DNA of 28,749 bases from Escherichia coli. GTDB taxonomy: Bacteria; Pseudomonadota; Gammaproteobacteria; Enterobacterales; Enterobacteriaceae. Below, in pieces: positions 3,985 to 5,319 of the stretch. Position numbers and translations under genes: made by a program. The stretch lies in the NCBI RefSeq assembly GCF_003334355.1, contig NZ_QOWP01000041.1, one strand, 5' to 3'. The notes beneath the pieces are model-generated. The model made no database searches. It was not told the DNA's origin and saw only the letters and a program-made list of their open reading frames with translations. Position 1 is the first letter of the stretch. The number at the start of each line of letters is the position of its first letter.

Positions 3985-5319
3985 TTACTGGCATATATAT
4001 GTTTTGTTTTCATCGATAACGTGTTGAAAAGTAATAGTACAGAATAAATTCTGTTCATCATTGAGAGCAACTTTTATGCCAGTTGGAATTTCATCTACGC
4101 GAATAAAAAGGCGACTACCCTGGCCAACGACTCCAATATTGTTTTCCTGGAGATCCAGTACGTCATAGCCAAAGGTTAATGGCGAACCATCGGGACGCAG
4201 TGCCTGTATATACCAGGGCTTACGTTGGTCAGTTGTAAACTGCACATAAGAAACTGCTCCACGGTAAGGCGCAATAATTTGACGATTGCCCTGCAATTCT
4301 GTTTCACTTTCACTGTTTGCTATATCAAGTACCAGATGGTTTTCACGATGAGGTATAATCGGGTCGTAAACAACCTGGCCTTTGCTGTTTGTTCGGTTGT
4401 ATTTTTGTCCATTAATATGCGCGCCTTCTAATCCAGGCGCATCCAGAATTGCAAATGTATCGGATAACTGGTTAGTGATATTAATACCACCGGACCAGAC
4501 AACTAATCCACTACTAATACTTCCACCACTTTGCCAGGCGTTTTTAGAATGACTATAGCTGCCATCTATTATGGCGATGGGAGTTCTCCAGCTTAAATTC
4601 GTACCAAGCGAGGTATCATTATTTTGTTGTTGCTGATTAACATATATACCATAATTTAACTGATCATGTTCACCGGCTATGCCAGTAATTCCAGTATTGT
4701 TGGAGGAATAGCCATCTTTGGAAAATGAGGTCGAATTCGATAAGTTAATTTGGTGACGTGTTTTGGCAATATCATCCCCCCAGTAGAAAGGAATGGAGAT
4801 AAACAGATTAAAACGCTCCTCTTCTTTATTATTTTCATCATAAGATTGGCTGGCAGAGAAAGTATGACTAATGTGTTGCCAGTTATTGGAGTAACTGAAT
4901 TGGTAATCTTTAGCATTTCCACTTCGCCCCCAGTAATTCCGCCAAAGCGCACTTAATGATACATTTCCCAGATTATTGGATAAAGGTTGCATAATATTGG
5001 CAGAAAGGCTATTTTTTCTGCCAATATCATAAAAATCATTATAATCACTCTGATGATAGTGTTTATCATTTTCGTAAAGATGGTCGCTGAATGTCCTGTA
5101 ATCCTGCGAAGCATAACGCCAGGCGGCCACGCTAAATCGAGTGGCTGTTTGTACTAGATATTTATTATAGGCGACCTGATAGCTCGTACCTTCGTGTCTG
5201 GTATCATTATTTAACTTACTACTCGATCGGGCAGCGTAAAAAGAGATGGCACCCAGCGGTGTATTCCAACCATTTCCCAGAGTTATAGCATTATAGTTAT
5301 CGGATAAAATCGTACCCGA
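3985..5319 (-). pseudogene. Fimbrial usher (FimD/PapC family), N-terminally truncated remnant of about 445 codons
   Basis: The frame is open from 5319 to 3985 with no credible start. The track ORF 3985..5130 begins at an internal GTG, and my own upstream translation ...ILSDNYNAITLGNGWNTPLGAISFYAARSS... stays usher-like until a stop at 5320-5322. The C-terminus has a Cys pair (CTITFQHVIDENKTYIC) and Gly/Ser/Asn-rich beta-barrel-like sequence. Intact ushers are about 800-880 aa. Confidence 0.6.

Follow-up and report, generated by a model that had tools for sequence, protein, structure and literature searches.

The described fimbrial system closest to the locus analysed here is the Yeh-like operon of Escherichia coli O157:H7, located in O-island 1 (ECs_0022-ECs_0024 / z0020-z0025). 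It occupies the same site, from nhaR to espX1/rpsT, and is accompanied by the same downstream adhesin-like gene. The genes z0020-z0025, which make up O-island 1, have been described as a putative fimbrial island (review PMC10877973). The usher Z0022/ECs0022 of this operon (also ECB_00021 and ECBD_3597 in B strains) was earlier classified as 'Yeh-like' gamma-4 type by Wurpel et al. 2013 (PMC3559732, Table S2), and the Yeh-like pilus has been named 'Yhl' (PMC12778044). Genes labelled 'ECS0022/24/25' in another paper (PMC3175480) were considered as genes of this locus and rejected, as these are unrelated sRNA names.

The nearest named paralogues of the operon are the yeh operon of K-12, which encodes the subunit YehD, the chaperone YehC and the usher YehB, and stc of Salmonella. 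The intact subunit of the Yeh-like operon scores 122.8 bits against the YehD model, just under the cut-off of 136, and the intact chaperone scores 326.5 bits against the StcB model, for which the cut-off is 500. The Yeh-like operon lies at another locus and its scores are below the equivalog cut-offs, and it is therefore a sister operon and not yeh itself.

Here we describe what is left of this operon in a 28,749-nucleotide stretch of E. coli DNA (contig NZ_QOWP01000041.1, assembly GCF_003334355.1), which is referred to as the window. Compared with the intact Yeh-like operon, the genes for the major subunit and the chaperone and codons 1-373 of the usher gene are absent from the window. The remaining usher sequence is very probably a non-functional leftover of the usher gene of the Yeh-like (gamma-4) chaperone-usher operon between nhaR and espX1/rpsT, and it arose through one deletion of 2,445 bp.

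Genomic setting and the intact operon

The window is a piece of the E. coli chromosome with an ORF order of a hok-like ORF, nhaA (835-2001), nhaR (2043-2966), a low-GC island, rpsT (7466-7729), ribF and ileS. The hok-like ORF (97-339, minus strand) is 80 aa long and ends in ...MKQHKAMIVALIVICITAVVAVLVTRKDLCEVHIRTGQTEVAVFTAYESE. By its appearance it may be HokC, a toxin of the Hok family that is nested in mokC, on the upstream side of nhaA. The 4.4 kb around the usher remnant is 99.9% identical to the corresponding DNA of strain PSS-12 and is matched at least partly in 4,866 of 5,426 complete E. coli genomes. The island between nhaR and rpsT (about 3000-7450) has a GC content of 31-42% per 500-bp interval and of 27% in its intergenic part, against 50% for the window as a whole, which is consistent with horizontally acquired DNA. 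The only ORFs from nhaR to rpsT are fragments of an adhesin-like gene, the usher remnant and fragments of espX1, and an Rfam scan of positions 2900-7800 with E-values up to 1 gives no match in the island.

At the same site in E. coli O157:H7 Sakai (L020), the genes between nhaR (ECs_0018) and rpsT are, in this order, an adhesin-like pseudogene with a frameshift (ECs_0019), the usher gene ECs_0022 (816 aa), the chaperone gene ECs_0023 (227 aa), the fimbrial subunit gene ECs_0024 (177 aa) and espX1 (ECs_0025). Six other strains have the Sakai layout. The last gene of the operon, encoding a protein of 319 aa, is intact in five of them; in L018, the sixth, this gene is interrupted by an internal stop and the chaperone gene is frameshifted. 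The locus L001, which carries the O157-type usher allele (same record coordinates as Sakai ECs_0022), served as the intact reference. The intact 816-aa usher aligns to FimD structures over residues 42-805 (E 2.5e-113). Within it, residues 43-151 are aligned by FimD N-terminal domain (NTD) chains, residues 137-651 by a construct of the FimD barrel and residues 248-328 by the plug of Caf1A. The position between nhaR and rpsT, together with orthology to the usher ECs0022/Z0022, places the locus of the window in the 'Yeh-like' type.

The usher remnant lacks a start and its N-terminal half

The usher pseudogene remnant is located at 3985..5316 on the minus strand and is identified by Pfam and NCBIfam searches, gap-free alignment and the annotation note of the NCBI pipeline PGAP. 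The preliminary description of this DNA had reported a usher-like frame open for about 445 codons, and our analysis agrees with this: from 5319 on, the frame runs through 444 sense codons without interruption and closes with a TAA stop at 3987-3985. It was also suggested there that an HMM search would tell which domains remain. In the 444-aa translation, the Pfam family Usher (PF00577; E 1.5e-82, 278.6 bits) is matched over positions 201-549 of its 549-position model, and PapC_C (PF13953; E 3.6e-9) is found in residues 371-432; PapC_N has no match in the same search. The NCBIfam profile NF011763 matches over positions 376-826 of 826 with 777.1 bits. This value is below the curated family cut-off of 933 bits, and an intact ortholog scores 1489.7 bits. 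Judged by these profile matches the usher homology of the remnant is far above chance, and an absence of usher homology is excluded by Pfam and NCBIfam alike.

Alignment reveals that the remnant corresponds to residues 374-816 (54%) and the stop codon of the 816-aa chaperone-usher fimbrial usher. It aligns with intact ushers without gaps over 1332 nt at 97.1-97.6% nucleotide identity (97.4% for the usher allele of L001). An usher of about 445 aa is not found among the intact relatives, in which the usher has 816 aa.

An in-frame TAA at 5322-5320 precedes the remnant frame. The first ATG, GTG or TTG past this stop is a GTG at 5130, which opens an ORF of 381 aa. The 63 codons ahead of it, from 5319 to 5131, contain none of these start codons and are still usher in sequence, and by eye no Shine-Dalgarno-like sequence is seen before the GTG. 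The earlier view that the frame has no credible start and that the GTG at 5130 is internal is thus well founded. The same description had the usher-like sequence running up to the stop at 5320-5322. The TAA is indeed in frame, but the usher-derived part ends already at 5316 (or 5313), not at 5319. The codon at 5319-5317 belongs to the old operon leader, and the TAA itself comes from retained intergenic DNA.

Comparison with FimD and PapC structures (3RFZ, 6E14, 7LHG and others) indicates that the C-terminal domains and a distal portion of the beta-barrel are still present in the remnant. The signal peptide and the N-terminal chaperone-subunit docking domain (the FimD-NTD-aligned residues 43-151) are missing, and the plug-equivalent residues 248-328, as aligned to the Caf1A plug (3FCG), have been deleted as well. 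The barrel itself, spanning residues 137-651, has lost residues 137-373, roughly its first third. In comparison with FimD, the remnant is therefore an incomplete usher.

Relative to intact orthologues, the start and the N-terminal coding region have been lost without a compensating start. In agreement with this, all deletion-bearing genomes fetched, a 99.9%-identical genome among them, have the remnant labelled by RefSeq/PGAP as 'incomplete; partial in the middle of a contig; missing N-terminus'. The remnant is not novel: it has been annotated and catalogued before as a pseudogene, and its fimbrial type is known. The 381-aa ORF from the GTG has, on the other hand, been annotated as a protein in many (older) GenBank submissions, for example as 'fimbrial usher protein'. 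A protein cluster at 90% identity that contains the 381-aa usher fragment also contains EspX1 proteins of 473 aa and has a representative of 470 aa. This mixture of usher and EspX1 proteins looks like a clustering artefact and not like biology.

A single deletion removed the front of the operon

Alignment to the intact locus L001 reveals a single deletion of 2,445 bp, which begins in the leader of the operon and ends in the usher gene at codon 373/374. In a blastn comparison, window positions 2900-5316 pair with 1501-3909 of L001 and positions 5314-7300 with 6352-8348, as collinear blocks. Viewed base by base, the junction is clean and has an overlap of 3 bp at 5314..5316, a microhomology common to both sides that reads ACC on the plus strand and GGT on the minus strand, where it forms usher codon 374 (Gly374). 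The breakpoint had been placed near 5320 in the preliminary description, and the alignment refines it to 5314-5316. No IS element or long repeat flanks the junction in the base-level view.

The lost DNA comprises 44-47 bp of leader upstream of the subunit ATG, the whole of the subunit gene (5774-6307 in L001), the whole of the chaperone gene (5041-5724 in L001) and usher codons 1-373. Upstream of the remnant in the window there is neither a chaperone nor a major-subunit gene and the next gene is espX1, as had been noticed before; both genes lie inside the missing 2,445 bp. Intact orthologous operons at the same site hold exactly the missing stretch, which bears out the proposal that a chaperone-usher operon has been deleted from the 5' side and that a non-functional remnant is left.

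In the DNA between the junction and espX1 (5317..5562, minus strand), the distal portion of the spacer that once separated espX1 from the major subunit gene has been retained; it is the former operon upstream region or leader. It is collinear with L001 6355-6608, a segment located upstream of the CDS for the fimbrial protein (5774-6307). Its GC content is 26.8% and no ORF of at least 50 aa is present in 5323-5562 on either strand, in line with the earlier reading of this DNA as AT-rich and non-coding. This retained far-upstream intergenic DNA is likely to be the promoter region. A consensus scan for promoters and terminators gives counts at or below the shuffled expectation, and a weak hairpin with a T-run, which spans the junction (5333-5314), cannot be told apart from a chance occurrence.

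These observations suggest a simple course of events. The ancestral operon would have consisted of four genes, for the major subunit, the chaperone, the usher and the tip adhesin. One deletion of 2,445 bp between two ACC triplets would then have taken away the final 44-47 bp of the leader together with the subunit and chaperone genes and usher codons 1-373. The part left behind would be unable to yield a working usher, having no start or ribosome-binding site, no signal peptide for transport to the outer membrane, no N-terminal domain for the uptake of chaperone-subunit complexes, no plug and an incomplete barrel. With the chaperone and the major subunit also gone, there would be nothing for it to assemble. 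From the anatomy of the remnant and established usher biology, we infer that it cannot act as an usher.

Neighbouring genes of the island are also inactivated

The last gene of the operon (3005..3972, minus strand, delimited by alignment to the intact 960-nt alleles of L004, L005 and L013) encodes, when intact, a tip-adhesin-like 'fimbrial family protein' of 319 aa. In the window it carries a 7-bp tandem duplication (3730-3736) and an expansion of an A7 run to A8 (at about 3667-3674), and is left as two ORFs at 3724-3972 (82 aa) and 3005-3688 (227 aa). The 7-bp duplication is also found in L002, whose copy of the gene is called 'frameshifted' by PGAP. Sakai and L001 have only the A8 change, with ORFs of 108 and 227 aa, L007-L012 have a stop after 72 aa, and L003 and L018 have internal stops. 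In 20 loci the gene has been knocked out in at least five distinct ways, including in strains with intact usher, chaperone and subunit genes.

Two published observations may concern this gene. Judged from gene order, z0020/z0021 are the counterparts of the two ORFs in O157, and z0021 has been reported to be FmrA, a repressor of motility (review PMC10877973). This role of z0021 fits poorly with a gene that is an adhesin gene with a frameshift. Moreover, the N-terminal 190 residues of a 'Sakai YhlD adhesin' have been cloned and crystallised (8V9V; PMC12778044, published in 2026). RefSeq lists the adhesin-like gene of Sakai (L020 1327-2287) as a pseudogene, and in L001 the O157-type allele has a frameshift near codon 100. 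A PDB sequence search with the intact 319-aa protein gives no match at an E-value threshold of 0.001 and nothing beyond noise at 10, and the only NCBIfam result for this protein is a 12-bit match to a fimbrial-like model. Either 8V9V lies outside the PDB set that was searched or YhlD is another gene. As the 319-aa protein has no PDB match, the 'Yhl' link is given by the name 'Yeh-like' used in the papers.

On the other side of the remnant, the type III effector gene espX1 (5563-6983, minus strand) has lost one T from a T7 run near 6712-6717, which leaves two separate ORFs, one of 129 aa and one of 373 aa. The same T6 state occurs in L002 and L007. In other strains espX1 is interrupted by IS1 (L005, a B derivative that also carries the deletion found in the window) or by IS2 (H11). 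Judged by their reading frames, all genes of the island are inactivated in the strain of the window.

Sequence constraint and possible use of the remnant

The remnant was compared among 12 deletion alleles (11 fetched loci and the window) and with seven intact alleles. The 12 sequences differ at up to 42 of 1332 positions. None of them has an indel, and the frame is open in 11; the remaining one (L008) has a nonsense codon at codon 261 of the remnant. Pairwise dN/dS (Nei-Gojobori) is 0.16 among the deletion alleles and 0.15 among the intact alleles. For a long-standing, freely drifting pseudogene, dN/dS is expected to approach 1. The ratio of nonsynonymous to synonymous private variants is 20:17 in deletion alleles and 16:17 in intact alleles, with no detectable difference in a comparison that includes only seven intact alleles.

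The two classes of alleles have no fixed differences and hold 23 polymorphic sites in common, and some deletion alleles (e.g. L003) are nearer to intact alleles than to other deletion alleles. Given the lack of fixed differences and this mosaic ancestry, the low dN/dS of the remnant can be explained by recombination with genes under selection, and recombination with intact alleles is the simplest account of it. The diversity of the remnant seems to have arisen largely in functional genes and to have been moved by recombination afterwards. Substitutions in the remnant, compared with L001-L018, cluster in short patches (e.g. codon positions 116-119, 163-180 and 256-279). This clustering suggests gene-conversion tracts, possibly from intact alleles or from a paralogue.

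That the frame has stayed open in all but one of the 12 deletion alleles and that dN/dS is low could also be read as signs that the remnant is still used, either for an N-terminally truncated 381-aa protein from the GTG at 5130 or as a long leader transcript that drives the downstream adhesin-like gene. However, the dN/dS is accounted for by the mosaic ancestry, one deletion allele has acquired a nonsense codon, and a protein from this GTG, before which no Shine-Dalgarno-like sequence is seen by eye, would be without signal peptide, N-terminal domain and plug and would form only a partial barrel. As for a leader transcript, the distal intergenic region has been retained, the 319-aa gene is intact in the deletion-bearing L004, L005 and L006, and the O157 counterpart region z0021 (FmrA) has been reported to repress motility (PMC10877973). 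On the other hand, the downstream gene is doubly frameshifted in the window, and promoter-like matches are no commoner than in shuffled sequence. We consider continued use of either kind highly unlikely. Very little probability is likewise left for the broader idea that the remnant is not inert, in which the retained upstream region, now in front of the 3' half of the usher gene and the last gene, maintains a transcript or a truncated product, for example for expression of the downstream adhesin-like/FmrA-region gene where this is intact.

Population distribution and origin of the deletion

The deletion was counted in 5,426 complete E. coli genomes with a 300-bp query centred on the junction, for which an end-to-end match was required. 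The identical junction is present in 2,426 genomes (about 45%), including B-strain derivatives, and a 2,442-bp segment of the deleted DNA is present in 1,203 (about a fifth). In E. coli the locus is thus most often found as the deletion allele. K-12 MG1655 differs from the window. The same island is inactivated there too, but it contains IS1 next to a 138-nt remnant of the adhesin-like gene, and the usher sequence is entirely gone.

Since the short form is the commoner one, it might be thought ancestral, with an insertion of 2,445 bp in O157 and other strains. However, the long form reads across the junction as one full-length usher that is homologous to FimD over residues 42-805, and because the intact usher is continuous through the junction, the 2,445 bp cannot be an insertion into half a gene. 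Alternatively, the same deletion could have arisen many times, as the deletion alleles are not monophyletic over the remnant. Against such recurrence, the junction is identical to the base in all 12 deletion-bearing sequences, a microhomology of 3 bp is too short to direct repeated deletion, and an IS element or repeat at the junction is absent. An ancestral short form or recurrent deletion is therefore extremely improbable. The chance that the junction is an assembly or sequencing artefact of the window is practically nil, as the 2,426 genomes that share it were finished independently, laboratory B-strain derivatives among them. Intact usher continuity and the identical junctions lead us to reject all of these readings.

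With identical junctions and a microhomology too short to repeat the deletion, one origin is most economical. The deletion would have occurred once and would have spread afterwards by vertical descent and homologous recombination.

Implications

The main import of these results is correct annotation, in that the 381-aa ORF from the GTG at 5130 is to be treated as a pseudogene. The locus also shows the stepwise decay of a fimbrial island, from the intact operon through the 2,445-bp deletion to the IS1-associated loss in K-12. The deletion allele is carried by about 45% of complete E. coli genomes, and such strains are unable to build the Yeh-like pilus, which O157:H7 and others still encode.
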